64,000 bases of DNA, taken from NCBI GenBank assembly GCA_000091205.1, contig AP006495.2, one strand, 5' to 3'. Below are positions 13,020 through 61,705 of this stretch, in pieces (position 1 is the first letter of the stretch; every line of letters starts with the position of its first letter). The DNA comes from Cyanidioschyzon merolae. Lineage: Eukaryota. The notes under the pieces are model-generated. The model saw only the letters and a program-made list of their open reading frames with translations, was not told the origin of the DNA and made no database searches. Position numbers and translations under genes: made by a program.

Positions 13020-14000
13020 AATATTAAGGTCTATTAGATCCCATTTGTAGAGGATGTGATGGGTGCCGCACCCCGCACAGGTCCAGCGGCCGCGTTTTCG
13101 TTGGATACGCTCGCGTGCGCTCGGCCACCGGGGAAGCAACGAAAGCGCGCTCTATGTTCCTTCATGTCAATGGTACTCCATATCCTGGTGCGTCTCATCA
13201 TATGCTTTTTTGCGGTTTATAGAAGATTTGTTCGAAATGCATTCATTTGAAGAAACAGAGAGAATCCAAGGAAAATTATAGACTGAAATTCGGGGATCCA
13301 GAAGGGCCCTCATCACCGCGTTATACCAGCGAACGAAAAATCCCCTAGTCGCCGACCATCGAGCGAAGAGGAACAAGTGACGAAGAAGCGGAAGCAAAAG
13401 GGAGATAGTCGCCAAAACGGTGATCTCTCGACCGGACGATGACCAGACTCTAGAGGCACATAGGGAACGAGAACCAGGAATCCATGCAAAGGTGACTTCA
13501 ACAGGAGCGAAGAAACGCAAAGAGTTCGTGAGCCGCGACGGAAACGCTGCTATCAATAGCAGACGATTTGCGGCGCTGAACGCGAGAGCCGACGAGCTGA
13601 TGCGATCCAAAATTGCGAGGCAGCGTCTCAGGATCCATGTGTGCCTGGATAACACTGACCCCGATACCAGGATGCGGGTGGAAACACACTGGGAGGCGTC
13701 TGCGCGCGGGTACTCATTTTGCCTCCATTGTCATAGAACGTTTATCGTTTTCCTGACCATATATGGGCAATCACGAATGGGCAAACCGCTGTTCTCGAAG
13801 AAGCGACAGGTGAGCAAGACCGCTGCATTAGCCAGTACGGCTATTTGCACGGGTGATCGCCTACAAATCGCCAAACATACCGGAGCGCTTCGCATCGCAG
13901 GCAACGTAAAAGCAATGTGTGGCTTCTGTTTGCGACATTCTTCTATTCTGCTCTATGACGACGTCGATTTCCATCACGAATGAGCTGTCAAGGAGTACGT
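13020..14000 (+). mobile_element. Internally deleted Fanzor-family element (copy A): 5' segment, then Fanzor 3' end, then partial R1
   Basis: The 5' segment 13020-13420 aligns to 17260-17665 (copy B) and to the minus strand of 49200-49500 upstream of the full copy, for example tgcttttttgcggtttatagaagatttgttcgaaatgc versus gttttttcgcactttataagagaggcgttcaaagtgc. The R1 part is at about 13760-13990. Confidence 0.6.
13420..13760 (+). pseudogene. Fanzor/TnpB-like C-terminal fragment carrying the RuvC-III motif (VSRDGNAAINSRR); no in-frame stop
   Basis: Translation DDDQTLEAHRER...KEFVSRDGNAAINSRRFAALNARADEL aligns to copy B, copy C and the full copy. The 3' block gggtactcattttgcctccattgtcatagaacgtttatcgttttcctgaccatata is conserved. 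Confidence 0.6.
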
Positions 14001-15916
14001 GACAAAAACTGCTCTCGAGCTGCTCCTGGTGAGACCCTTTTTTTCCGATTCAAGCCAGTCGAAGGCGACATCTCTGTTGCCAAACACCGTTTTTGAAGCT
14101 CACGGATCCATCGACGAGTCGTCCGCATCCATGACACTGTCATCCGACGAATTGCTCTTCGGAAAGTCATTCTCTTCCTGAACCATTCCTGAGCTGGTGT
14201 CTCTCAGCTATGCTTGTTTGCGGGAGGGAGCGAAAATGCGCGCCTCGGTCCGTGAACATCGCCCTTGGGAGCCGCTAAAGAGATTGATGCTCAGGAATCG
14301 TGGAGATATATGTAGGAGAAACAGAGTTCTGGAACAAGTTCCACTCAGTGCGTCGAAGGAGATGCTTTAAACGCTCCAGACAGCACATGAGACTCTGTTC
14401 GATTCGCTTGCAGTTTCGGTTGTATGGAGGCAAGAGTCAGGCATTCGCCAACTTGTGCGATAACTTGCAAAAAAGCAAATGGTCGATATCTCGAGTTGTC
14501 ATGCTGTAGTCAATGGCACTGGACGTGCAGTAACGCGCGAGCGCTGCACTCCGATTCCTTTGACGACAGCGTACATGGAGTGCAGGAATCGGCGCTTTCA
14601 GATTTCCTTCCATGAGTTCAGGACGACACCATTGCATCACGGGCGCGGGTGCATGTTGAATCAGGTACAGATGGAGAGCGTGAAACGGATCCGAATGCAC
14701 GAGATGGTGCTCACTAAGCTGAGCGGACGCCAGCTGACGGGGCGATCCCAGGTCCAAGGCTTGCTGTGAGGTGACGCTACCAGCAAACCTGCACACAAGC
14801 ACGTTCTACACCGAGACCCAAAACGCCTCGACCATCATCCGGGGATATCTTTTGCGTCCGAAGCATCCAGCGGCCATATGTCGAGCAAGCCTTCGAGGGT
14901 ATCGTTTGGTGATCAGTGTGGGCATTTTGCTGAAACGCGGAAGGCATGCGATGAAGAAAATCAGTAACCAGGAGAGAGGGGAATGGATTCTTTCGGGAGC
15001 GAGGCACTGGTATTGGACGGTCAGCGATCGAGCACGATTGATCACTATATACATCCGCAACGATTTTCCTTGGCAACTAGTGAACATTAGCAATGTTCAA
15101 TTACTCGATATCACCGTGCATATGCTCGACGCGAACGGCCGTACGATCGCCCCAGACTGCACTGTTACCGTACGACGTTCGTGGTAGCGTCTCCCGCGCT
15201 TTCGCAAGCGATCAGATTTCGCGAGACACCTACCGGGAAGCCTGATCCAGCCTCTACATCATGCCTGGATTCTGGACTGGGGATGGAGGAACGAGGACGC
15301 ATCACCATGTGCGGGGCGCTCCATACTCAACAAACTGGAAGCTTTTGCGCATCCGTCGGAATCTGGTCCGATGCACTGATCCAGTACACACTAAAATAAA
15401 GCAGTGACGATGGAGGGCGGTGCCTTTGACACCGTAAAGCTCGCTTGACAGCGACCGCATGGACAAGAGGGTGAAGTGCGCGGTTCCGCGGCGCGCTCGC
15501 CACGGGAAATGGCGCCCCAAGTGAAAAAGCGGTCAGAACACGTGCTCATACAAGGTCGAATGCGTTGGTTGCTCCCTCGGTTACCGACCAAAACCGCTTA
15601 CCACGATGGCACTTTGCATATCGATGATGTTTATCCAACGTTAGTGACAATGACGCAGTGCAGCGAATCATCTAGAGAATATATCTCTGGTTCCAGTGCA
15701 GACACGCCATCATGAATGCATTCAGTGATGCCCGTCACAATGCGCTTCGCTGGGAACACGCTATCCCCATTCGATGAAGCGCGGTACGGCAGGCCACGTA
15801 GACCTTGAAAACCCTTGCATTTGCTTGGCGCTGCAACACGAATCCGTTCAGGCATCGGAAAAGTGAACCGCTGCAATTCGGCATAGCATGCAGACCTTGA
15901 ACGCTGTCACGAGACG

Positions 15917-17589: not shown

Positions 17590-17982
17590 GTGACAAAGAA
17601 GAAAAAGATGATGATTCGTGTTGGTAGGCGATTCAACGTGTACGCACGACGGAACGATGACGAGACTATGGTGGCACAGAGGGAACGAGTGCTAGGAATC
17701 CTTACAAGGATGACTTCAAGCATCCTCAATGCACGCAGTGAGCTCGTGAACCGCGACTTGAACACTGCTATCAATACCAGACGATTTTCGGTGCTGAACA
17801 CGAAACCCCAAGAGCTGACGCGAGCCAACTTCGTGGAGCAGCCTCTGATACTCAAAATGTGTAAGGAGAAGCTGGAGCCGATAGCAGGCGGCCGGTCAAA
17901 AAATGGTTGGGTGACGTCTGCGGGTGGGTATTCATATACCCTACATGATCGTGCGAAAACTTTTGTTTCAGTGACCACATAG
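17590..17982 (+). CDS. In-frame internally deleted Fanzor/TnpB-like ORF (130 aa): about 35 N-terminal residues fused to the C-terminal RuvC-III segment
   Basis: MMIRVGRRFNV resembles MVAKAFVLRQF, the N-terminus of the 49166 ORF upstream of the full copy. ERVLGIL...VNRDLNTAINTRRFSVLNTKPQELTRANFVEQPL aligns to aa about 570-630 of the full copy. The stop TAG is at 17980-17982. Confidence 0.5.
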   Translation: MTKKKKMMIRVGRRFNVYARRNDDETMVAQRERVLGILTRMTSSILNARSELVNRDLNTAINTRRFSVLNTKPQELTRANFVEQPLILKMCKEKLEPIAGGRSKNGWVTSAGGYSYTLHDRAKTFVSVTT

Positions 17983-24849: not shown

Positions 24850-26300
24850 CGCCGAAGCATCCAGCACACTGTGACACACCCGGGCACATTTCGTGGTCCT
24901 TCCGCAGGTCCTTCACCTTTGGGGAAGGTCCTCACCTAAACGCATAAAATAGTGCATTCATTTTCAGGAAATAAAAAATCGATGGTATGAGTTTGGATGC
25001 ACACTTCAGAACAAAGAGATGGAGAAGAGCCAGCGGAGCGCTTCGGTGATAGAAAAGCACCGAGAGCTGACACAGAACCAAATGACACAGAGTGAACGAG
25101 TTCTAGGAATCCTTGCATTGGTGGGTTCACGCAGCGACGATAAACGCATGGAGTTCGTGATACGAGACCTCAACGCTGCCATCAATATCCGACGATATGC
25201 AGAGCTGAAGACGAAACCCGCAGAGCTGTAACGATCCAACTTTATGAGGCGACCTATTAGGATCGAAGTTTGCAACGAGAAACTGAAACCGACAACAAGC
25301 AGCTGATCGAAAACGACTGGGTGGCGTCTGCACGTGGATACGCATCTACCCTACATAATCGTGCGACAATTTTTGTTCCACTGACCACATACCATGTCTG
25401 AATAACTTTTTGGCGTCCTCCTGTGACGACTCGTCGGCAAGCTCACGCAGAAATTTCACTGAACTTGTCAAGTCAAATACTCGATTCCATTTGAAAGACA
25501 ATGCCTTCTCACTTGGTTGCTATCGATGGAACCACGGTCGACTTCAGTTCGACAAATCCCGGGAGATACGCACGCAGTGGCTGTCTTCTCTTGTATTTGC
25601 GTGGAAAAGGTCTGGGGCGCGGACTCTAGTCACAGCGGTGATCTCTTCGGGTGCAGCGTGCGTCACGACTTCGCATGGGCGGAGCGTAGACGAATCGAAT
25701 TTTCTCGACTTGATCTCCAGCATGGATTACCATACCGGCGCTCGTTTCATCATGGACAAGCTTGCGTTCCACAAATCCTCTTTCGAATGGGACAGCGTGT
25801 GCTTGGTCGTCCTACGGATATTGAGTTCGCCACGGGCATCGCCCTAAACAAGTCCATGATCGTTGGGTCCGGCAACTGGCTGGCGCGGAAACCTTCCAGG
25901 ACGTCGCGGGGAGCCTTCTGGATCCGTCACGGGCCTGTGCCGGGCGATGCAGCGAGCGGTCACGCACCGCAGGGCGCCAATCTGAGGACGACAAATGGAG
26001 AATACACTCGAATGCCTGACTACCGACGAGTGGCACTGCTACGAAAGGCGCATCCGGGCTCTATACAAACAAGCGAAAAACGGCTGGCGAGGCGTCGATC
26101 GCAGCATTCGCCTGTGCATGGAAAACATGAAAAACATTCGAAAACAGCGTGATCAGGAGTTTAGCGCTGCCACGAACATCTTGCGACTGCTGAAAAAAGA
26201 GCTGGAAGCACAGGAGAGACTGGGGCATTTAAAACCTGAAAAAAGATACCCTCAAAGGGAACAGTTGGAAAAAGTCTGCAAAGGCTGGCATTGATAAAAC
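24850..26300 (+). mobile_element. Internally deleted Fanzor-family element (copy C): 5' segment, then frameshifted Fanzor 3' fragment, then degenerate R1/methyltransferase-like region
   Basis: 24985-25391 aligns at nucleotide and protein level to aa about 536-650 of the full copy. 25393-25810 aligns to 1140-1560 and 18000-18300. Confidence 0.55.
24985..25391 (+). pseudogene. Fanzor/TnpB-like C-terminal fragment (RuvC-III: IRDLNAAINIRR), frameshifted
   Basis: GCTLQNKEMEKSQRSASVIEKHRELTQNQMTQSERVLGIL...MEFVIRDLNAAINIRRYAELKTKPAEL aligns to the full copy's [40 protein letters not shown]...[16 protein letters not shown]. The downstream frame is shifted (RSNFMRRPIRIEVCNEKLKP). Confidence 0.6.
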
Positions 26301-28329: not shown

Positions 28330-29709
28330 GGCAATGTGAAACAGGGAATAGTCTCTGAAAATGAACGTGATTGCTCTTGAGCTTGATCTCGGCACTGGCC
28401 GATGCGGCCGCGATGCAGCAGGTGCTTGCATTTGCTCGGTTTTCGAGAACTTCGGGTCTCGCCAGCTGCATTGATCAAGAACAGCGACACCAAAGCATGG
28501 CAAGCCAGGTACATATGCTGACCACGAAAGCGTTCGGACAGCCGGCAGCGAGGATCCCGAGTTCAAGAATTGTCGCTCTGGACCAAGGCGCTTGAGAGAG
28601 GTCCGCGCCTCGAGGCTGAACGTGTGCTGGACCTGCGTTGCGTCAAAATGGAACACTAAAATGCTCGCTCTCTTCCTGTCTTTCGAGTTTTCCCAAAATT
28701 TCTCACGTATTCTGCATCGATATTCGGAATGGAGCAACTGCGGCTCATGGAATCAAATAAAGCATTAGGATTCTCGGTAGTGGGTTCAGGATGGATTCTT
28801 CGACTTTTTGCCGCTTGAGTTCGTGATGTCATCGGGATCGAGATACTTCGCGAAGCGAACGAACGTGGTGTCGTAAAATAATCGATATCGTCATCCGATT
28901 CAGGAGTATACGTCTACGCACGTGTCCGCTCCGTACGAGTTGCGTACCCGAATCAAACAGTCTTGAAGTTTTCGCTTTTCTAGATGCAAAGCGAGTCGTG
29001 TGCACAGCGATTCGCGTCGCTGGATTGACGAGGAGGAAAGATGAGCGTCGTCCCCTGATGACTTGTTAACAAGAACATGTCGAAAGTTCGCAGAACTCGT
29101 CACGTCAAATAATTGATTCCAGTCGGAAGGCAAAGCTTCTTCACTCTGTGCGGTAATCGACGGAACGGCACGCTACAGCAGCGCGACACGTCTCCGGGGA
29201 TAAGCTCCCAGACGCTCTCATCAGCTCTGTTTGCATGGGATAGGTCTAGGACGCTGACTTGAGTCATAGAAGCAATCGCTTCTTTCGAAGTGTTCGTCAA
29301 CGCTTTGCACGAAGGAAGCCTTGACGAAATGATACTTCTCGAGTACAGCGCCAACATGGATAATCCGTTCAGTCGGTTAGCTCGTCATGAATAACATCGC
29401 GTTCGACAAATTCTCTATTGACTGGAACAGTGCGCCTGCAGCCGACGTAGTACTCGCCGAGGGAAACGCTCAGACAAAGTCCGTGATCGTCGGCTGCGGC
29501 ACCGGATGCGGAATGCGAAAAGGACATCGCAGGGAGACTTGCATATCCACCAGGGGTAAGTATGGAGCGATGAAGGAAGCGGTGACGCGCCATCAGGCGG
29601 CATTCGGAGAATGAGGTGTGATGCACATATGAGAATCCACGACCAAAGCCAAGTGCCATCGTTGCGAGAAGCGAACCAGGGAAATATACAAAGAAGATGA
29701 AAATGGCAA

Positions 29710-29960
29710 GCGAAGCGGAAATCGCAACCGTGGGCTTTACATGTCACGCGTTGACAATAGCAGGAATCAGCGTAATCGGGAGTTTAAAGCCGCCATCAAC
29801 ATCCTTCGATAACTGTCAACGGATTCAGAGGCACAGGAGGGACGGATCCAGTGAACTCGATAACTACTACAGAGGAACAGGAAGCAGTGGCAAACGCAAC
29901 CCGCGTAGTCTAATGTTGATAATATTGGGTAGAGAGTCAAAGTGTCATGTATATACGCTA
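29710..29960 (+). mobile_element. Short decayed Fanzor/TnpB-like remnant (copy G) with a RuvC-III trace
   Basis: One frame reads NRGLYMSRVDNSRNQRNREFKAAINILR*, resembling [33 protein letters not shown] of the full copy. Downstream, ggaagcagtggcaaacgc resembles ggaagcagtagtaggcggcc. Confidence 0.4.
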
Positions 29961-38855: not shown

Positions 38856-41131
38856 GCGCATAAGCGGTAGGTCGATGCCGGGCACATCCGGCACGCTGCA
38901 TCGCGGGTTGCATGCCCTTCGCATACCGCTCCAGGCTTGATCAGGGGCGATAACAGACGCTCCAGCGATGTATCCTTTGCGTGCTGCCTGATACGGAAAA
39001 CGACATCTTCAAGCAGCGCATGACGCTCAGACATGTTCTTGATTGAAGCTTTGACGAGAAGCGAAAACCTTTGGAACGATCCGCTTTCAATCCAAGGCCG
39101 TAAGGATATCCGATCTCGTACGATCCATACAGGCAAGGATCTGAATGGAGCGCATTTTCCGTTCGTTTATTTTCAACGGATCGCTCGAGGCGCTCCCGGG
39201 TCACGCAATGCGATGGTGTGTGCTGGCGCTGCTGCTGGGCGTTCGGCGTTGCTGTGCGTTTACGAGTTATCTGCGCCCCCACGGTGTGCATGTGATGAAC
39301 GCCCGAGACGAATGAGGCCGCCCACGCTGCTGCCGGGCTGCGTCAGCAAGCATCCCCAGTTTGGTACGATCAAGTGCCGGGACATCCATGCAGTCCTGCA
39401 TGTTACGCGTGCGGCCGTCTTATCGCCTGAGCTGGCGCACGTAAGCGCACTCGCAACGCAAGTAGCTCTGGGTAGCGTTCTGAGGCCTAGACGCAGCGTG
39501 CTCGAGATGTTGCACATCCGAATGCCGTTCGGGAGATGCGATACCGGCGCTGTGGACGGAACCCCGGTCCGCTATGGAGCATGCGGCAGCGACGGACATC
39601 GATACCTGCACTGGATAAAATATCCAGTATGTTCTCTGCATGCTTACCTGACGTGCATTGACTTCATCTCAGATACTTGTCTGCGCTGTGCATTGTCTGC
39701 TGTAAGCTACGACCTGGGTTTGTTCAACGCAGCGCAGGCATGCACGAACATACATGATGGTATTTGCATGTCGATTTTGCAAGGTTGCTTGACCTGCCAG
39801 CTCTGAACTCAACCGTAGCGCACTCCACGCTGCGAGATGCGTTTATGACCGCACCCTGTCCTTTGATCTGCCAAACGTTCCCAGACACGAAAAGCAACCC
39901 AGGCATGCTTCATCTCTCATGACTGTACGTCGATAGATGATGCACATACAATACTCGTATACACGGTGTCCGCTCAGGTGGAAGACGCTGCGGGTCTCTG
40001 CTCGTGGCGTTGCCGCAGCGGTCGGAGAGTGTCGATCGCGCGTTCCTGCATCCCCGCCGGCGCTACTTGATACACGATGTACACTGACAGAATGCGCTGA
40101 TATCAAGAGCGCAATCGGGGGTGCCTGTTCAGTGTGTAAAGGTTGTATAAAAAACGCGATGTGCGCTGTCGACTGGAGAGAACGTTGCGTGCGATTGTAA
40201 CTACAGCGCAGCATTCTCGACATTCACTACGTTCAAAAAAAGACAGAAAAAAAGCACTTGCTTTTTGCAACGGTCCCGAAAGAACACAAACGAACCAGCA
40301 ACCAGCGACTCGATACCAATTTCGTTCCAGCTTCACGGTGAACATTGAACGGGGGCAAACGTCTCCGTATTTTCGAACGTTGATCCGCATGATGGAAGGT
40401 CGCACGACCCCGACGTGTCCGGCGGGCTCGTGCCTCACGCCTCCCTCAGTTACCGGGTGATGTGGCGACACCCGAGCGACTCATCTGCAACGATGTTTTT
40501 GTTTTTAGATGAGAAAGCGGTAGGCTGCATGCTAGGCGTTGCCCTGGTTGCAGTACGCTCCTGGCAGATCGCTTCGCGCTACCGCAAGCAGTGCGTCTCT
40601 CTCCGCAGCTTGCTGGCTCCCAGTATCATAAAGAGTCCCGATTCCGTATTGAATAAAAGACACTTCGAGCCAACGTCCTCAGTCGTATGCCAATCCCGTT
40701 CTATGCTCGTGCTGCACCCGCACCAGCTGTATAGGGGTTATTCAGGGGACAGCAAGGCAGGTACTCGCTGCGCGATAGAACGCACGAAACGACCAGTACA
40801 ACCTATATCACATATAGGTTATGGAACTTGAGCGTATGGCACAGCATGATGGACAATTCCATGAACCCTACTATCCATCCCGTGTCTGGGTTCCGTGGTC
40901 AATGGAAACATTTCGTCAAACATGAGAGAAAAAGCCGGTAGGCCTCAGCGTGCCACCAAGTCCCGTTTTTGAAATCCCTCATCGGGCGATCGCGCCAAAT
41001 CGATCGTACGTTGCGCGTTGGTGCGCTCTTGCGCTGTGCTGCGGCACGCTGCAGTACGCACGCTCTGGTGAACTGCTCTGTCGTGCTCGATATCGCAACG
41101 ATTGTGTTGACGGCACAACAAAGGTCTCTGA

Positions 41132-44665: not shown

Positions 44666-44710
<45 letters not shown>
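44666..44710. repeat. (AGC)15 microsatellite
   Basis: agcagcagc... x15, intergenic and downstream of PCCB. Confidence 0.9.
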
Positions 44711-45049: not shown

Positions 45050-46864
45050 TTACAGGGGAATATTTCCATGTTTTTTCGGGGGCCATGGCTCCCGTAACGC
45101 CGCTGTCTCTTTGCTCGCTAGGAGGCTTAGCCCGTGTATGAGCCATCGACGCGTCAGTCTTGGTCGCACGACAGCATCGACGTAGCCACGCTGGAGTGCA
45201 ACCGAAACCGAGGATTCCTCGCTCGCTTCAGTGTCACCCGAAGTTTCGAGCGCATCCGTCGACGCAACTCGCCTGCGAAGGATCTGACTCGCTGCAGCCC
45301 TACCCATGACAGCGATATGGGCACAGGGCCAAGTTGCGTTCAGGTCGCCACGCAGGTGCTTGCTTGCCATGACACAGTACGCGCCACCGTATGCCTTACG
45401 CAAAATAATGGTCAGTTTCGGCACGGTTGCCTCCGTGTACGCATACAGCAACTTGGAGCCGTGTCGGATGATGCCGCCATGCTCTTGCTGCGTTCCGGGA
45501 AGGAAGCCTGGTACGTCAACCAGCGTCACGATCGGTATGCCGAATGCATCTGCAAAGCGCACAAACCGTGCTGCTTTGACGGCAGCGTCGGAATCGATTG
45601 CACCTGCTATGCACAGCGGTTGGTTGGCAATCAATGCCACACTGCGACCGTTCAGTCGAGCAAATGCAGTTAGCATGTTTGGAGCGAAATCGGTTTGAAT
45701 TTCTAGAAATTCTTCATCATCGACGAGGCGCATCAGAACATCCCGCATGTCGTATGGCGTATGCGCATCCGAGGGTACCAGTCGATCGAGCACGGGTTCT
45801 TCGCGGTCGCTGGGATCCTCGGTGACAACAACTTGGGGAGCGGGAACACGCGCATTCTGCGGCAGGTACGACAGCAGCTCACGGGCGAGTTGTATCACGG
45901 CAATATCGTCGTCGGCGTCTAAATGGGCAACGCCCGAGATACGACAGTGAACTGCGGCACCGCCAAGCGCCTCATCAGTTGTTTGTTCGCCTAGGGCAGC
46001 GTTCGTTACGCTGGGCCCCGTCACGAACATTCGTGCATGTCGTCTGCTCATGAGCACAAAGTCCGTGAGTGCTGGTGAGTACACTGCACCACCTGCACAC
46101 GGCCCGAGAATCAGGGAAAGCTGCGGGATGTATCCCGAAGCCAACACATTGCGTTTGAAGACCTCTGCGTAGCCTGCGAGCGAGCGCACCCCTTCCTGGA
46201 TGCGCGCTCCTCCGGAATCACAGAGAGCAACAACTGGCGCGCCGACCTCGATGGCCTTGTCGATGACCTTGCAGATCTTTGCGGCGTTGGCTTCGGAAAG
46301 AGAGCCACCAGCAACGGTGAAGTCCTGGCTGTAAACGAACACAGGTCGACCGTGAATCCGTCCAAAGCCCGACACAACGCCGTCGCCAGGAGTGCGATGT
46401 TTTCCAAGCGGATCCGAAGACGATGCATGGAGGGACTCTCTTGAACTGACCAGTCGATCAAGCTCTTGAAAAGAGCCACGATCCAGTAAAAGGTACAACC
46501 GCTCCCGAGCGGTTAGCTTTCCCTGGGCGTGCTGGCGGCGCACTCGAGCCCGGCCGCCTCCGCAAAGAGCGAACACTTCTTCCTGGTACGTCCGCTCGCC
46601 AACACCCAAGACAGACGCAAGTCCGCTCGCTACTATCTGGTCCGTGGCACCGGCTTCCGTCGAGGCAGAGTCCAGGTCCCTGTTCGTGGTTACGGAGCCG
46701 TTTACTGAACCACCCGTTCCAACGTCGTGCGGGTGTTCAGCGAAAGCGCCCCCGCCACCTGTACTGGACCTGGAGCACGCAGTGGACAGCCAAACGCGGA
46801 ACCGCTGTCGTACGGTTCTCCATGTGACGCTCTGCAGTCGCTGTGGCCAGGAGGTGTCTCGCAT
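45050..46864 (-). CDS. PCCB: Propionyl-CoA carboxylase beta chain / carboxyltransferase (PCCB-type) with an Arg-rich N-terminal presequence
   Basis: ALCGGGRARVRRQHAQGKLTARERLYLLLDRGSFQELD matches the PCCB N-region, and carboxyltransferase domains follow to the stop at 45050. The proposed start is M at 46864 (MRDTSWPQRLQSVTWRTVRQRFRVW). The listed ORF continues upstream in frame into the Fanzor sequence. Confidence 0.8.
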   Translation of the reverse strand: MRDTSWPQRLQSVTWRTVRQRFRVWLSTACSRSSTGGGGAFAEHPHDVGTGGSVNGSVTTNRDLDSASTEAGATDQIVASGLASVLGVGERTYQEEVFALCGGGRARVRRQHAQGKLTARERLYLLLDRGSFQELDRLVSSRESLHASSSDPLGKHRTPGDGVVSGFGRIHGRPVFVYSQDFTVAGGSLSEANAAKICKVIDKAIEVGAPVVALCDSGGARIQEGVRSLAGYAEVFKRNVLASGYIPQLSLILGPCAGGAVYSPALTDFVLMSRRHARMFVTGPSVTNAALGEQTTDEALGGAAVHCRISGVAHLDADDDIAVIQLARELLSYLPQNARVPAPQVVVTEDPSDREEPVLDRLVPSDAHTPYDMRDVLMRLVDDEEFLEIQTDFAPNMLTAFARLNGRSVALIANQPLCIAGAIDSDAAVKAARFVRFADAFGIPIVTLVDVPGFLPGTQQEHGGIIRHGSKLLYAYTEATVPKLTIILRKAYGGAYCVMASKHLRGDLNATWPCAHIAVMGRAAASQILRRRVASTDALETSGDTEASEESSVSVALQRGYVDAVVRPRLTRRWLIHGLSLLASKETAALREPWPPKKHGNIPL

Positions 46865-46962
46865 GGCGCACACCGCTGAACGCCGTTCTAAAGTAGAACG
46901 TCGTCGGCGGTGTACAGTAGTAGCGACCGGTGCGCCTTGGACAACAAGTCGCCTACTGACGT

Positions 46963-48913
46963 GCAGACGCTTCCTAGGCTTTTTCGACCGGCCGCCTACT
47001 ACTGCTTCCAATTGTGTCTCATATAGTAAAACCTTAAGAGGTTGTCCAACAAAATTCTCTCGTGTCATCTCTGGAGGTCTGTTCTCCAACACCGCACATC
47101 TCCTTATATTGATGGCGGTAATAAAATCTCGGTTCACAAAATCCATCCGTTTCGTGCCGTTGGGAGTTGTACTTACTAATGCAAGCAGTCCACGAACTTT
47201 CGCTCTCCTTTCCATTTGCTCTTCCGTCAGCTGTCTATACTTTGCTATATCCTCAGGGCTCCTCTGGCACTTTTCCATCTCGACTCTCTGAAGTGTTAAC
47301 CCCTGTTCATGGTGTGTATACGATGTTCGAAACTCATCTACAGGTATCGTAACGAAACGCCTTGCACACTCCTTGTACATTCTTGTCGTTGGAGCTGGTG
47401 TAGTGCCTTTCTTGGGCACCCATCGTCCTGCTCCGTCCGCTACGACGAGCCTCTGACTTTCCTCCTCCTTCAGGGCGCTCAACTCATTCAAAAAATTCGC
47501 GAACGCCCGCTGCCTCCCACCGTATAGATTCATTCGCAGACGAGCCCACCGGGGCTTGGTATACTCCTCCCATAGCGCATCCCAGTGCGCCATGCGAACT
47601 TCCATGAATTTCCGGACAGCTTCAAAGTCCGCTCCTCGGCTCGTCACCTTACTCAAAGCTTCCAGGTGCTCTTTCATTCCTGGATTCCAAGTCTCGATTT
47701 TCTTCCTCGCATTCATGATTCCCGATTCTCGATAGTATATTGCTCTCGAGAACTTCAAAAGACGCATGTCTTTCTGACGCATGCCGCCGTCAGTGCCATC
47801 TTCCAAACGCTTGGGTACTGCGATGGTGATGATATTTGTGTTTCCGAGGTCCGCGCCAACGACAAAGTCGTTATCATGCACTTTCTGCGCGGCAGGATCC
47901 CCCTCCTTCTCATCTTTATGCATCGCCGCGCCAACGACAAAGTCGTTAGCTTGCACCTCCTGCACCACAGGATCCGCTTCCTTCCCATCTTCATCCTTCA
48001 TCACGTCAACGACAAGGTCGTTATCCTGCACCTCCTGCATCACAGCATCCGCCTCCTTCTTTTCTTCATGCTTCGTCACGGGCGCAGCCGAGGGCGGAAC
48101 TGGACGATCTTTCTTCAACCGCCGACAGAGTACACACGTGGCTACTCCATCGGTTTCGATCAACCCAGTGAATACCTTCTTCGTGCTCACTTTGAGACGT
48201 TTGAAATCGAAGCTGCTCATCCAGTACGTCTCCCGGTTTCCGCCGGTGAAGTCCTCCCTGCTTACATCGAACTCCGGACAGATATCCCTCATGATGCCGT
48301 AAAGGACGCCGGAGTCGATAGTCACAAAATGTGACTTGATCTTGCACATTGGAACCACGTTGAATCGCTTCCGCATTAGGACAGCCTTCCGTCTCTCCCA
48401 CTCTTCCTTTGTCTCTTCACTCAGCTTCATCTCCGCTTTGCGTTCGAGCTCTCGGTCCAGAAACACAAAATAGCGCAGGACGAGGCGATCGTATCTTTCC
48501 CTATCTTTTTTCAGCTCTGATATCTTGTCTGTTGGATTCGCCAGGCCCAGTATCGCACGATGCTCTTTAATAACCGCACGGATTACGGAATCCTCATTCA
48601 TGCTCTCGTTTGAAACCTTCTTCTCGACAAATTTGATCTCATCTTCATGCTTGCGATCTTTCATGATGCCATTGATAATCGCCCATTTTCCATTACGAGA
48701 GATGCCCGGGTATAGCGCAAACACTGCGCATATCATGAAACGTTCCAGGTTCATTGTAAAATGGTTCTTCACATTCGTGAGGTACTTCTTCGCCCCGAAG
48801 GTGTAAATATCCCAGTCAACCTTGTTTAGAGTACCCTCGAATCTGTAAAAGGGATGTTTTTCGTGGAGGGCGTGCACTCGCTCATCACTCGTCGAACATT
48901 TTTCCTGTGCCAT
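46963..48913 (-). CDS. Fanzor1-like (eukaryotic TnpB/OMEGA-type) RuvC nuclease, main ORF (aa about 1-650 of the 1287-aa read-through ORF)
   Basis: Has RuvC-I ([19 protein letters not shown], compare GIDLG) and a TnpB-like segment [16 protein letters not shown] (compare VDPAYTSQTCSVCG, Cys ligands lost). RuvC-III is [18 protein letters not shown] (compare DRDVNAAINI). At the canonical RuvC-II position the sequence reads LVVADG (E replaced by A). Confidence 0.7.
47857..48055 (-). repeat. Three in-frame tandem repeats of about 69 bp inside the Fanzor ORF, immediately N-terminal to RuvC-I
   Basis: [53 protein letters not shown] and [18 protein letters not shown]. Also visible as repeats on the plus strand at 47781-48302. 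Confidence 0.7.
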
Positions 48914-49166
48914 GCATGAAGTGGCGGTTGAATGTCTTGTTGAAAAATTCTCCCGGAACCTCGACTGTTTTGATGCCCATCACGTTGTCGTACATCTCCC
49001 ACGCCAAATGCATTATTCCTGAAGAAGCCTTTGTTATACTCATGGAGTAGCACGCGCCACGTTTTCTGATGGCCTCCCATGACTTTTGCTTGGAGGGATC
49101 CTTGAATTGGCGTAGAACAAATGCTTTCGCCACCATTTCTTCGTACTGTTGTCTTTCAAGTTGCAT
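48885..49166 (-). CDS. Probable N-terminal segment (about 90 aa) of the Fanzor protein, separated from the main ORF by a 1-nt frame shift in an A5 run
   Basis: The ORF MQLERQQYEEMVAKAFVLRQF... ends [11 protein letters not shown] overlapping the main ATG (ggaaaaatg). Removing one A gives a continuous ...[14 protein letters not shown]... Its N-terminus is conserved in the mini-ORF of copy B. Confidence 0.45.
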   Translation of the reverse strand: MQLERQQYEEMVAKAFVLRQFKDPSKQKSWEAIRKRGACYSMSITKASSGIMHLAWEMYDNVMGIKTVEVPGEFFNKTFNRHFMHGTGKMFDE

Positions 49167-50149
49167 TTAGCGTCTGATTTCCAGTCTAAGGTCCCCCGTC
49201 TTTTCATGATTCTCTTGGCTTGGCGCTGTTTTTCTGGAAGCCGGCGACACTGGGCCTCCAGCATCGTCGACTTGCTTTGACATAACTTTTTTATTTTGTT
49301 CTGAAAAAGAACGCACTTTGAACGCCTCTCTTATAAAGTGCGAAAAAACACTCGAATACACTCACTTGAGCGTTGAAACCCCATTGAAATGAAAGACTGT
49401 CATATTGTGCGACTTCAGCACAGATCCAACCAGCACGTGAGACCCACACGTCAACGTATGGTCAGCATAGCGTTTCCATTCAACGCCGTGATACGCATTG
49501 TGTCGTGCATGCCAGATACGGAGCTGCGCGTATCGACCGCGCCATATAGAACAAACAACAGAAACTCACGACTACATACCAGTAAGATAACGATTTTTAC
49601 CCCCCCTCTGCAATGGACGTTAAAAGGGGGAGATGTTTCTATCATGTCGAATGTTTACCTCCTCGGCGGAAGGCCCCGCGAGCCCGACGAGTTTACCAGG
49701 CTCGTGCTTCATGCTCCCCCAGTGGCAGTTGCTATAATGAGACCCGAGCAACTCGTCCGCAATGTAATTTGTTCTTGGACTTGGATCGAGTAGCCTGCGT
49801 CTGGGCGTCGCGTTTGTCGTACTGGATTCCTCATATATCGCTTCACGCTTTTTGCAGGCAATTCCTTTGTCTCCACAAATTGCAGTCTCCCAGCATGATA
49901 ATGAATCCCGAACTCATGTCATTCGTAGCGTTCCTCGATCCGTCGCCCCCCCGTCGTATGGGAAATCCGTTCTTTCTCCATGATGCATCTGCACCAACGG
50001 TATAGCTGTTATTGCTGGTGCTCACGGCAGATAGTCGGCACACGATACAACGCACGAAACGACCAGTATATCCGAGAGGATATATAAGTAATGGAACTTG
50101 AAAGTAGGTTGCAGCAGCATTATGGACGCTTTCCCGAAAACTAATCCCC

Positions 50150-50278
50150 ATCCATCCATGCATCTATCTATCTACCTATCTATCTGTCTATCCATGCATG
50201 CATCTACCTATCTATCTGTCTATCCATGCATGCATCTATCTATCTATCTATCTATCTATCTGTCTATCTGTCCATCTG
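50150..50278. repeat. Compound (TCTA)n-based microsatellite with about 3 higher-order units of 32-36 bp (ccatgcatgcatctacctatctatctgtctat)
   Basis: Read directly at 50150-50278. A GC-only run (gccgccgccaccgccgcctccgccgccggcg) follows at about 50400-50440. Confidence 0.85.
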
Positions 50279-50539
50279 GAATCCATGGTCAATGTAAACG
50301 TCTTGGAATTGAAAAAAACAACACCAGCGGCGTCGTCGCTGCACGAATTCGCTGCCGTGACGCCGTCCAGCTGGCGACCTTTGTTTGCCGATCTTCTGCG
50401 GCCGCCGCCACCGCCGCCTCCGCCGCCGGCGACGACGAAGTGACGCGCCGCGGACCCGCAGCCGCCCGCGAGCCTCGTCGCCCGCACATTGCCGTGTCGT
50501 TTCGGCAAGTAGTGCGATATTCTTATTGTGCAGTAACGG

Positions 50540-60735: not shown

Positions 60736-61705
60736 ACCAAACCGGTACTAGCGACTCTAAGCGTTGCAGCGGGTCGCAGGCCGGGTGCCGTCGTTCACTC
60801 AAAAAACGAAACAACCCGAGTTGCCTCGCCTGCAGAAAGCGTCCAACGCAGTCCGTGGCGAGTTTCTGCTCCCCGTTAGCGCGAGAAGACTGCGCGGAGC
60901 ACGCCCTGCGGCATACAGCGCCTCGTGGCGTCGTCGATGCCGCGCCAAACACACACGCATGCGCCGGCGCGTCTGTGATGATCCTGCAGCGCCAGTTTCG
61001 ATTCTCGTGTGCTGGCATCCGATTCTTGCTGTTTTTCTGGAATGAAACAGCGTCGACGTTGCGCATGGATGCCAGATGGCTGAATGCGTATTGAAATAAA
61101 TGAAACCGCTCATTATTATTCACGTTACTTCCGAGTTCCATGACCAGTTCTCGGATGTAACTGTCGTTATATACTTTTTATCGTGTGCCGAGTTCGTGCT
61201 TGGAACACCTGCCGTAGCGCCTAAACCGCTGGTGCCGATGCATCATAACGTGTGACCTGTTTTGGCACGCAAATGAGAGCGTCAGCTCGAGATGTCCTTC
61301 ATCCGACACATGGGAACAGCGACAGCATGCTGGGGAACGAAGCAGCGAGCTCATTGGGGTATTGTGAGATCGATGGATCGAGTCCGAGAGCTGCGCACGT
61401 CTCGCTGCTGCTGTTGGTAACCGTGAGAGAGGTCACGAGTGCGCTGGTGCGGGAACCCTGGGTGTGTATGTTTCGCTCTTTACACGGATACCTCTGTGCA
61501 TGAAACCGGAACAAGGCCCAAGGGTGCGTTAGAGCTATCGATCATCACTGGGAAGTTCGCTACAATGCGCTCTCGATGCACATATCGGAATGAAATGGAA
61601 CTGGTTGACCAAACTAGGTCAGGTATGCACACGAAGGTCTGGGCGTGTGCCCGTGATGATCAAGACCAGGTTTAGCGTGCTTTTCGGCTCTCTTGACTCC
61701 GGATT

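Follow-up and report, generated by a model that had tools for sequence, protein, structure and literature searches.

An open reading frame (ORF) on the minus strand of chromosome 13 of Cyanidioschyzon merolae 10D carries the motifs of a Fanzor nuclease, and the locus raises the question whether a recently active gene, broken by a single nucleotide, stands here among host genes, or the remnant of an older transposon. The window, by which we mean the whole stretch of 64,000 nucleotides that was analysed, comes from this chromosome, six of its ORFs being identical to proteins BAM80984-80996 (matching ORFs include CMM127C, CMM129C, CMM134C and others). A trypanosomatid or an oomycete source of the window was weighed and discarded. 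The locus is very probably a decayed copy of the Fanzor1 transposon CMe-1A, separated by 15 bp from the start codon of the downstream propionyl-CoA carboxylase beta gene; it is the host and the published description that give it the name CMe-1A, not a comparison with the Repbase sequence. Both the presence of Fanzor1 in C. merolae and the repeat family have been in print since 2013, and the copy in the window is in all likelihood dead. CMe-1A was described as an old family of about 150 copies in the C. merolae genome, about 80% identical to their consensus, about 3 kb long and devoid of terminal inverted repeats (TIRs), and was left unclassified by its authors (Bao and Jurka 2013, PMC3627910).

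Limits of the element and its repeat family

The whole repeat element, a CMe-1A-like Fanzor1 transposon copy, occupies positions 46879..50318 on the minus strand (about 3.44 kb with an internal microsatellite) and contains a single ORF. Its 3' end is sharp: coverage by paralogous loci falls to zero below 46879, 24 paralogue alignments stop exactly at this position, and ...cgttcgactttcgaacggcgtt is the terminus of 56 copies before their flanks diverge, the flank directly beyond it beginning here with CAGCGGTGTGCGCCATG... The 5' end is marked by the start of a T-run and homology among the copies begins at TTTTTTTCAATTCCAAGACGTTTAC, the coordinate of about 50318 being approximate, with about 45 nt more of conserved sequence upstream in some copies. 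A T-run of variable length is present at every 5' junction, and the first base of the 3' flank is T, C or G, never A. Neither terminal inverted repeats nor asymmetric inverted repeats were found between the ends of nine full-length copies; when the first 82 nt were compared with the last 80 nt, seven of the nine gave no complementarity reaching 7 nt, and the other two gave chance 7-mers that differ from each other.

Two repeats lie inside the element. A (GATA)n / 32-bp microsatellite of 116 bp (50162..50277, no strand assigned) has expanded within the 5' non-coding region, at a place where other copies have ...cccagattgcgggatggat... Just upstream of the RuvC-I motif is a 75-bp tandem repeat encoding three units of 25 aa (47854..48080, minus strand; period 75, 3.0 copies, 81% matches), the unit number of which varies among family members (2-5 units in relatives) and which is predicted to be disordered (AlphaFold pLDDT <50, residues 272-340).

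In metagenomes that hold near-identical Cyanidioschyzon DNA, we collected 242 related stretches. The DNA identity of paralogues is 65-87%, that of the nearest sampled ones about 85-87%, and the element ends are common to dozens of copies. A full uninterrupted ORF is found in only one of 81 sampled loci.

The neighbouring carboxylase gene

Outside the element lies the host gene for the mitochondrial propionyl-CoA carboxylase beta subunit (45050..46864, minus strand; Pfam Carboxyl_trans, E = 4.8e-165), which matches exactly the 604-aa protein BAM80995.1 / XP_005537031.1 and whose ATG is 15 bp downstream of the element 3' end and in frame with the Fanzor remnant. The stop codon of the family (46937..46939, minus strand) is TAG or TAA in 54 of about 72 paralogues and reads CAA here, and because of this loss (TAG to CAA) the ORF runs in frame into the carboxylase: it does not end at 46963, as had been supposed, and continues to 45050, stop-free for 1287 codons through the carboxylase gene. 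Its length of 1287 codons is an artefact that the loss of this stop has produced.

One may consider that the host has exapted the remnant, either as a truncated Fanzor polypeptide starting at the ATG at 48913, by itself or fused to the carboxylase in a product of 1287 aa, or by using the element 3' end as promoter or 5' UTR. In favour of exaptation are the 1287 codons without a stop, the fusion frame that is open in L058 too, and the proximity of the element, whose end is 15 bp away from the carboxylase ATG: the upstream control region of this gene must lie within or across it. However, losing the stop, together with a frame match that has a 1-in-3 chance over about 75 nt, is enough to produce the read-through; in the reference annotation M684 is where the carboxylase begins; related strains have upstream stops that leave called products of 590-875 aa; the clade conserves the N-terminal 130 aa or so that are missing here; and a strain-to-strain comparison for purifying selection gave unusable values. 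We therefore consider exaptation improbable, and the unannotated 3.4 kb upstream of the chromosome 13 propionyl-CoA carboxylase beta gene are best explained as a transposon remnant.

Reading frames and lesions of the copy

The main frame of the Fanzor1 coding sequence (46940..48913, minus strand, 658 codons) encodes, in order, a REC-like helical region, RuvC-I, the relocated RuvC-II glutamate, a degenerate zinc-finger region, RuvC-III and a C-terminal tail. Translation of the ORF returned the motifs quoted in the original prediction, LVVADG included, in the order given there. The N-terminal part is in another frame (48898..49283, minus strand, from the family start ATG at 49283-49281), in which tblastn places residues 8-107 of the 752-aa relative P0001 at 49217-48906. 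The 93-codon ORF at 48885-49166, which is not in the frame of the main ORF and had been correctly picked out as about 90 displaced N-terminal codons, is the N-terminal continuation of the gene, since P0001 spans both frames. When one A is removed from GGAAAAATG the two frames merge, as had been foreseen, into one ORF, which counts 742 aa before the position of the family stop and aligns with P0001 in one colinear block (70.6% identity, 725 columns). An A5 run, situated at 48899..48903 (minus strand) and not at 48893-48897 as first reported, lies at or near this +1 frameshift, which parts the N-terminal frame from the main frame. The intact relative L001 is one base shorter in the same stretch and needs no frameshift; by comparison with it, the extra base can be placed only somewhere between 'acagg' and 'atgagcg'.

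The view that the gene is broken only by a 1-nt slip does not hold. A nonsense codon TAA (49167..49169, minus strand) replaces the family CGA (Arg), found in 32 paralogues by codon counts, and interrupts the N-terminal coding sequence 39 codons into the native ORF. The ATG at 49166, previously taken as the start, is a mutated AGG that follows this in-frame TAA, most paralogues having AGG there, and the family start is at 49283, which is ATG in 47 of 54 paralogues. To these are added the loss of the stop codon and six copy-specific changes at clade-conserved residues (P356L, Y493D, N598I, A599T, H262L and R29L). The TAA is present in all four independent metagenome assemblies that cover the site, including L033, L041 and L002, of which at least L033 and L041 represent the orthologous locus. 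The nearest paralogues being as distant as given above, the TAA being in all four assemblies and the family being old, the description of a recently active copy is not supported.

That the gene is nevertheless intact in the organism, the frameshift being a homopolymer error of sequencing or assembly, or being bypassed by programmed ribosomal frameshifting, so that an active Fanzor1 of about 740 aa is made, is suggested by the position of the break at or near an A5 run, by the colinearity with an intact relative that is restored by dropping one A and by the unbroken catalytic triad. Against this, the A5 run recurs in three of the four assemblies (among them L033 and L041) and the fourth, L002, has an A6 that is also out of frame, so that resequencing of the run is unlikely to restore the gene; programmed frameshifting was considered and dropped; L001 is in frame at this site; and the early TAA, the lost stop and the six altered residues speak against an intact gene as well. 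We give an intact gene a very slim chance. Because of the lesions in its ORF the copy is predicted to be inactive, a pseudogene which, judging from its sequence, can no longer make a full Fanzor1 protein: the TAA falls in the native N-terminus and the frameshift would cut off the first 130 codons or so. A caveat to decay is that no stop interrupts the 658 Fanzor codons of the main frame, in which the catalytic triad stands complete, and that a truncated product beginning at the ATG at 48913 would be conceivable from the sequence.

Two comparisons were set aside. A dN/dS analysis of the window against near-identical metagenome versions of the locus was rejected: the excess divergence is most likely an assembly or repeat artefact, because the differences cluster in the 75-bp repeat and in the last 100 bp or so next to the ends of contigs, the single-copy flanks being 99.8% identical. 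L003, tried as a more distant orthologue, is a mosaic with a 3' end about 98% identical and an N-terminus about 75% identical, and was left out.

Fanzor1 homology and fold

Single-sequence searches with the window protein gave no match in Pfam, NCBIfam or the PDB (phmmer); the OrfB_IS605, OrfB_Zn_ribbon/Cas12f1-like_TNB and NCBIfam TnpB models were not matched by it, PF07282 was found in relatives only below threshold (E = 0.034-0.23), and a 9-sequence profile had no match in the PDB. Using a profile built from 103 relatives, the window ORF included, we obtained from the PDB the Fanzor1 structures PpFz1 (9cf0, E = 2.6e-26), SpuFz1 (8gkh, 1.2e-20) and GtFz1 (9cer, 2.5e-16), and no TnpB, Fanzor2 or Cas12 chain up to E = 10. 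Among the profile and single-sequence searches tried, it is the only one that gave PDB sequence matches. The main-frame ORF matches the family profile with E = 1.3e-151, far beyond chance, and the N-terminal frame matches its positions 21-108 (E = 1.9e-13). The AlphaFold2 model of the main-frame protein (pLDDT 80.4, pTM 0.78) retrieves by Foldseek, from the PDB, Fanzor1 structures at all ranks from 1 to 7 (E 1e-12 to 4.5e-9), with Cas12 proteins next in rank, and by model and Foldseek the Fanzor1/TnpB/Cas12-type fold (WED-REC-RuvC-NUC) is present. Profile and predicted fold together identify the minus-strand ORF as a genuine Fanzor1 homologue, in agreement with the original prediction. Chance likeness of motifs within an unrelated repeat-encoded protein, to which the empty single-sequence (Pfam, NCBIfam, PDB phmmer) and 9-sequence searches and a best single match to PF07282 below threshold in a relative might point, has next to no probability and is refuted by the strong matches of the deeper profile and of the fold to Fanzor1 structures, with the catalytic motifs aligned. 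This Fanzor1 clade escapes single-sequence Pfam and PDB searches, and it takes a deep profile or a search by fold to recover it.

Catalytic site and zinc finger

The D-E-D triad is kept in the window copy, and its three residues are invariant in the 103 relatives. The RuvC-I aspartate D355 (47849..47851, minus strand), in GADLG here and DPG in the clade consensus, aligns with DPGR/DPNK of PpFz1/SpuFz1. The glutamate E527 (47333..47335, minus strand), in VDEFRTS, aligns with DEYKTS of SpuFz1, DEFRTS of PpFz1 and PEHYTS of GtFz1, and the RuvC-III aspartate D596 (47126..47128, minus strand; clade consensus NRDxNAAxNI) with NRD of SpuFz1/PpFz1. In SpuFz1 the triad is D383/E541/D606, D383 being in the active site and E541 of DEYKTS binding Mg2+ (PMC10432273, PMC11423790), and a rearranged RuvC-II site has already been described (PMC10530073). 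The canonical RuvC-II position is non-acidic throughout the clade (consensus VAYG; ADG, within LVVADG, in the window copy). The RuvC-II glutamate is a relocated one of Fanzor1 type, beside the [TS][TS] motif; for the alanine at the canonical position, two explanations had been offered, of which the rearranged site stands, with an invariant Glu in DEF/YxTS, and the inactivating mutation does not.

A C4 zinc finger, part of the original Fanzor motif (Bao and Jurka 2013, PMC3627910), was not found between the TS motif and RuvC-III: the window segment through to LLALVSTT has one Cys and no CxxC, and both Cys pairs are kept in only 10 of the 103 clade members. Since the authors of the family list the C. 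merolae protein as Fanzor1, and in view of the profile and fold homology, the clade may be read as a zinc-finger-less subgroup that would still belong to Fanzor1.

The 3' end as a candidate omega-RNA scaffold

The element ends in a hairpin (cgacgttcta-ctt-tagaacggcg + tt; 46879..46905, minus strand; RNAfold -10.6 kcal/mol), one pair of which shows a G-C to T-A double change in the window. Among 37 non-redundant copies, 33 fold at -8 kcal/mol or below at the 3' end; the plotted structures have the terminal stem in most of these 33, in two different sequence versions, with a hairpin of 10-11 bp that in most copies finishes 0-2 nt from the element end. RNAalifold on a MAFFT alignment of 35 3' ends returned just one long-range helix, AGTAGTAGGCGGCCGG with CCGGTCGCTACTACT, whose 8 pairs are all nearly invariant and show no covariation; it missed the terminal hairpins because the two versions stand in different registers, and these were therefore scored per sequence. 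The 192-nt 3' region (46879-47070) folds at -65.7 kcal/mol (z = -3.2), third-codon-position conservation is 0.85-0.88 in the C-terminal tail region versus 0.80-0.82 in the catalytic domain, and Rfam has no match in 46500-50500.

The element 3' end (46879..47010, minus strand), with its conserved coding sequence for the C-terminal tail, 58-nt post-stop tail, long-range helix and terminal hairpin, is a candidate omega-RNA scaffold or cis-acting end. Intact members of the family encode in their single ORF of about 750-780 aa a Fanzor1 nuclease with a RuvC fold and the active-site residues Asp, relocated Glu and Asp. If it works as the characterised Fanzor1 enzymes do, the protein would take up an omega-RNA made from the structured 3' end, whose extension into the flanking DNA would serve as guide, and the two together would cleave DNA that matches the guide beside a target-adjacent motif.

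Comparison with known systems

SpuFz1, PpFz1 and GtFz1 (8gkh, 9cf0, 9cer; PMC10432273, PMC11423790) share with the C. merolae protein the fold (Foldseek E as low as 1e-12 and TM as high as 0.57/0.63) and the catalytic motifs, namely DPG/DPN in RuvC-I, Glu in DE[FY]xTS (PEHYTS in GtFz1) and NRD in RuvC-III, but only 13-15% identity. The CCCC of SpuFz1 is not found in this copy, which lacks the first CxxC, nor in about 90% of its clade, and the 30-nt inverted repeats of the SpuFz1 elements have no counterpart in those of C. merolae. By contrast with the three characterised proteins, a 25-aa tandem repeat precedes RuvC-I and this copy is a pseudogene.

The Chlamydomonas reinhardtii elements CRe-1, 2 and 3, which are carried by Helitron2 (Bao and Jurka 2013), likewise contain Fanzor1 only and look non-autonomous; as in C. 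merolae, there is a 3'-terminal hairpin, the 5' junction has a T-rich tetranucleotide, and fragments are biased to the 3' part. In the C. merolae element, by contrast, neither asymmetric terminal inverted repeats nor a clear hairpin at the 5' end were found, the 3' hairpin reaches the very end of the element, and the host genome is not known to contain a RepHel partner. TnpB2 of IS200/IS605, with its rearranged RuvC-II (PMC10530073), has the Glu about 35-45 residues downstream, beside a TS motif, and a structured 3' (right) end, as here; from prokaryotic TnpB in general, the C. merolae protein is set apart by the lack of any significant sequence match to TnpB models and structures, by roughly double the length, by an extensive helical region at its N-terminus and by its eukaryotic host.

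As a tentative and rather unlikely extension, CMe-1A might be a hairpin-ended element of single-strand or rolling-circle type (Helitron2-like or IS200/IS605-like) that is mobilised in trans, its hairpin being the last stem of the omega-RNA, and might represent a large zinc-finger-less Fanzor1 subgroup, perhaps still active where a rare copy is intact. C. merolae, which is tiny, haploid and easily targeted by homologous recombination, would, if this reading were true, offer a convenient natural system for the role of Fanzor in its transposon.

The closest known system is CMe-1A itself (PMC3627910), which agrees in host genome, in its length of about 3 kb, in its one Fanzor1 ORF, in the absence of TIRs and of clear TSDs, and in its many copies, about 80% alike, most of them degraded and a few intact. 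No difference was found at the level of the family, of which the present locus is one damaged member. Beyond the published description, we add the conserved 3'-terminal hairpin, the T-run at the 5' junction and the missing CCCC zinc finger, and these features, together with the sharp 3' end, could guide the classification of CMe-1A and a search for its omega-RNA.

Fanzor1 homology and active site

Searches with the single window protein gave no match in Pfam, NCBIfam or the PDB, and a profile built from nine relatives likewise gave none. Using this nine-sequence profile in an exhaustive profile search, we collected 4149 relatives at E ≤ 0.001, and a second profile made from 103 of them had only three distinct significant sequences in the PDB, all Fanzor1: those of Parasitella parasitica (PDB 9cf0, E = 2.6e-26), Spizellomyces punctatus (SpuFz1; PDB 8gkh, E = 1.2e-20) and Guillardia theta (PDB 9cer, E = 2.5e-16). 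For the window ORF, an AlphaFold2 model (pLDDT 80.4, pTM 0.78) has these same Fanzor1 proteins as its best seven Foldseek matches (E 1e-12 to 4.5e-9), followed by Cas12 enzymes. Profile and predicted structure thus both bear out the Fanzor homology of the original prediction.

Seven columns are invariant in the 103-sequence alignment, among them D355 (GAD), E527 (VDEFRTS) and D596 (NRD), which align with DPNK, DEYKTS and NRD of SpuFz1, respectively; in SpuFz1, two magnesium ions are coordinated by D383, N385, E541 and D606 (PMC10432273). The alanine at the canonical RuvC-II position had been read either as inactivation or as a rearranged site, and the alignment supports the second reading: this position is non-acidic clade-wide (consensus VAYG), and the invariant E527 aligns with SpuFz1 DEYKTS. 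This is the "rearranged catalytic site" known from Fanzors and from some TnpBs (PMC10530073).

The element and its family

A scan of metagenome contigs gave 242 related stretches, from a few samples in which DNA 99.8% identical to the single-copy genes of the window also occurs. The limits of the element were set by paralogue coverage across the window. Its 3' end is sharply defined, at 46879 (...cgttcgactttcgaacggcgtt), and a T-run at about 50318 forms its 5' end. The element is thus about 3.44 kb long and has one ORF; no inverted termini were found between the two ends. A (GATA)n / 32-bp-period microsatellite (50162-50277) is expanded in the 5' non-coding part, where other copies read ...cagattgcgggatggat....

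A Fanzor1 repeat family is already published for the C. merolae genome. [quoted passage not shown] All that was measured on the window element agrees with the published description, and it is very probably a member of CMe-1A.

Seven copies (L006, L014, L028, L029, L031, L059, L065) share about 45 nt of additional conservation ahead of the T-run (gactgcctgatctcccaggtgcgcccaccgagcgcgattc). Either the element really starts further upstream, so that many copies, that of the window among them, have lost a little of their 5' end, or it is often inserted beside another repeat. The window also contains five heavily decayed fragments on the plus strand (13501-13629, 14405-14694, 17674-17847, 25085-25228 and 29639-29809), whose similarity to the Fanzor1 profile is confined to its C-terminal RuvC-II/III region (positions 455-597; E 4e-9 to 1e-3), and the conserved 3'-terminal ACTACTGTACAC motif is kept in none of the five. 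Two further stretches, 40394-40880 (minus strand) and 61149-61246 (plus strand), resemble the element only in its 5' non-coding part (positions ~180-660; 67-72% identity), with no Fanzor coding sequence. They may represent TE-N2_CMe, a short element that, according to Bao and Jurka, has the 5' 635 bp of CMe-1A.

State of the window copy

Two reading frames are found on the minus strand, a long ORF of 1287 codons (48913-45050), the first ~660 codons of which hold the originally predicted motifs, and an upstream ORF of 93 codons in a different frame (49166-48885); a look-up of protein records found neither of them. A 752-aa metagenome relative (P0001, 72% identical) covers both frames, and the N-terminal and main-frame pieces were therefore once a single gene. 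Once one A of GGAAAAATG is removed, the resulting 742-aa ORF can be aligned to this relative in a single segment (70.6% identity). The motifs, the two frames and their joining by a one-A deletion are thus real, but the coordinates and limits needed correction, the A5 run lying at 48899-48903, a few bases from its first placing.

Codon counts across paralogues at key positions put the family start codon at 49283 (ATG in the window and in 47/54 paralogues). It is followed by a nonsense codon at 49169-49167 (TAA; CGA in 32 paralogues), the ATG at 49166 previously taken as the start is a mutated Arg codon (AGG in 29 paralogues), and the family stop at 46939-46937 is lost (CAA; TAG or TAA in 54 paralogues). 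Together with the +1 frameshift, the nonsense codon and the lost stop make three lesions of ORF structure. Compared with close paralogues, the window copy also carries P356L, N598I, A599T, Y493D, H262L and R29L, at sites that 80% or more of 100 distant relatives conserve; P356L adjoins the RuvC-I Asp, and N598I and A599T adjoin the RuvC-III Asp. In bacterial TnpB the residue after the RuvC-I Asp is usually Leu.

An error of the reference assembly does not explain the frameshift, because the lesions recur in independent assemblies: the TAA and the A5 run are both present in two of the same locus (L033, L041), and a copy with a different 3' flank (L002) has the TAA and A6 instead of A5, likewise out of frame. 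A complete uninterrupted ORF occurs in only one of the 81 sampled loci, a locus seen twice (L001, L006). The window copy is among the better preserved, yet on its sequence it is a pseudogene, and its description as near-intact and broken only by one slip is not supported.

The proposal of recent activity is not supported either, as the window copy shows no sign of it. Paralogues differ from it by 13-35% at the DNA level. The RuvC half has a dN/dS of 0.3-0.4 and the N-terminal half one of 0.5-0.65, and conservation is lower at third codon positions than at the other two; this is the signature of past protein-level selection in active lineages, an argument already made by Bao and Jurka (PMC3627910). 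A single-locus dN/dS, comparing the window with near-identical strains, was discarded since the differences were clustered at contig ends and in a 75-bp repeat, with flanks 99.8% identical.

Positions 1-3108 of L002 (Ga0080006_1163603) are 98% identical to window positions 49979-46879, with a wholly different 3' flank, and share with the window the TAA, the lost stop and an unusual T-A pair of the terminal hairpin. Either an already broken copy was recently duplicated or mobilised in trans in the strain concerned, or the contig is chimeric.

Neighbouring host genes

Six ORFs of the window are residue-for-residue identical to C. merolae 10D proteins BAM80984-80996 (tags including CMM127C, CMM129C and CMM134C). 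The annotated mitochondrial propionyl-CoA carboxylase beta subunit (BAM80995.1, 604 aa, minus strand) has its ATG at 46864, 15 bp downstream of the element 3' end at 46879. Because the family stop codon is lost, the Fanzor frame continues in frame into this gene, which forms the last 604 codons of the 1287-codon ORF (carboxyltransferase, Pfam PF01039, E = 4.8e-165). With the element end so close to the ATG, the promoter or 5' UTR of the carboxylase beta gene must sit within or across the transposon. A perfect (AGC)15 microsatellite lies at 44666-44710, between a Leo1-like gene and the carboxylase gene.

A candidate omega-RNA at the 3' end

Most copies have a 10-11-bp hairpin ending 0-2 nt from the element end, and 33 of 37 non-redundant copies fold at or below -8 kcal/mol. 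The hairpin exists in two sequence versions, GCGTCGTTCGA-CTT-TCGAACGGCGT and AACGTTTTTC-TTTT-GAAAGACGTT; in the window, one pair shows a double change from G-C to T-A. Visual comparison suggests a similarity, in direct orientation, between the ~21 nt that open the element (TTTTTCATTGACAAAACGTTT) and the ~21 nt that close hairpin version B (TTTTTCTTTTGAAAGACGTTT), with 16/21 positions alike. The 192-nt 3' region folds better than shuffled sequences (z = -3.2) and contains an almost invariant long-range helix, AGTAGT..GG with CCACTACT, for which no supporting covariation was found; Rfam gave no match. Third-position conservation is raised in the C-terminal tail, which is absent from distant relatives.

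From the hairpin, the folded 3' region, the long-range helix, the raised conservation of the tail, the sharp 3' end and the Fanzor1 fold with its complete active site in the family, and with SpuFz1 and TnpB as models, we infer that an omega-RNA scaffold would be encoded in the last ~130-190 nt at the 3' end, with the flank directly past 46879 acting as guide. A role of the terminal hairpin as a DNA signal in transposition is just as possible.

Comparison with known systems

The CCCC zinc finger common to SpuFz1 and TnpB is missing from the window copy and from ~90% of this large Fanzor1 clade; in the E527-D596 segment, 42 of the 103 relatives have a single Cys and 15 have none, and the C. merolae family has an extra insertion of ~25 aa. 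The 75-bp tandem repeat of the window (47854-48080, minus strand) encodes three 25-aa units, where relatives carry 2 to 5, and corresponds to a duplicated strand leading into the RuvC-I Asp, in a region predicted to be disordered.

More speculatively, the C. merolae element might move like the Chlamydomonas Fanzor1 elements that are carried by Helitron2 (Bao and Jurka 2013, PMC3627910), a reading that we keep as a minority hypothesis because neither asymmetric terminal inverted repeats nor a 5' hairpin were found at the element ends. In about 40 of the sampled copies (L001-L081), a T-run is present at all 5' junctions, in many cases after GA, and the start of the 3' flank is non-random: it begins with T, C or G, never A, and continues mostly with G, often as GTTGGTG or a TGTTGTTG-like sequence. 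The terminal hairpin, the 5' T-run, the 3' flanks without an initial A, the lack of TIRs and the 3'-biased fragments all recall the Chlamydomonas elements.
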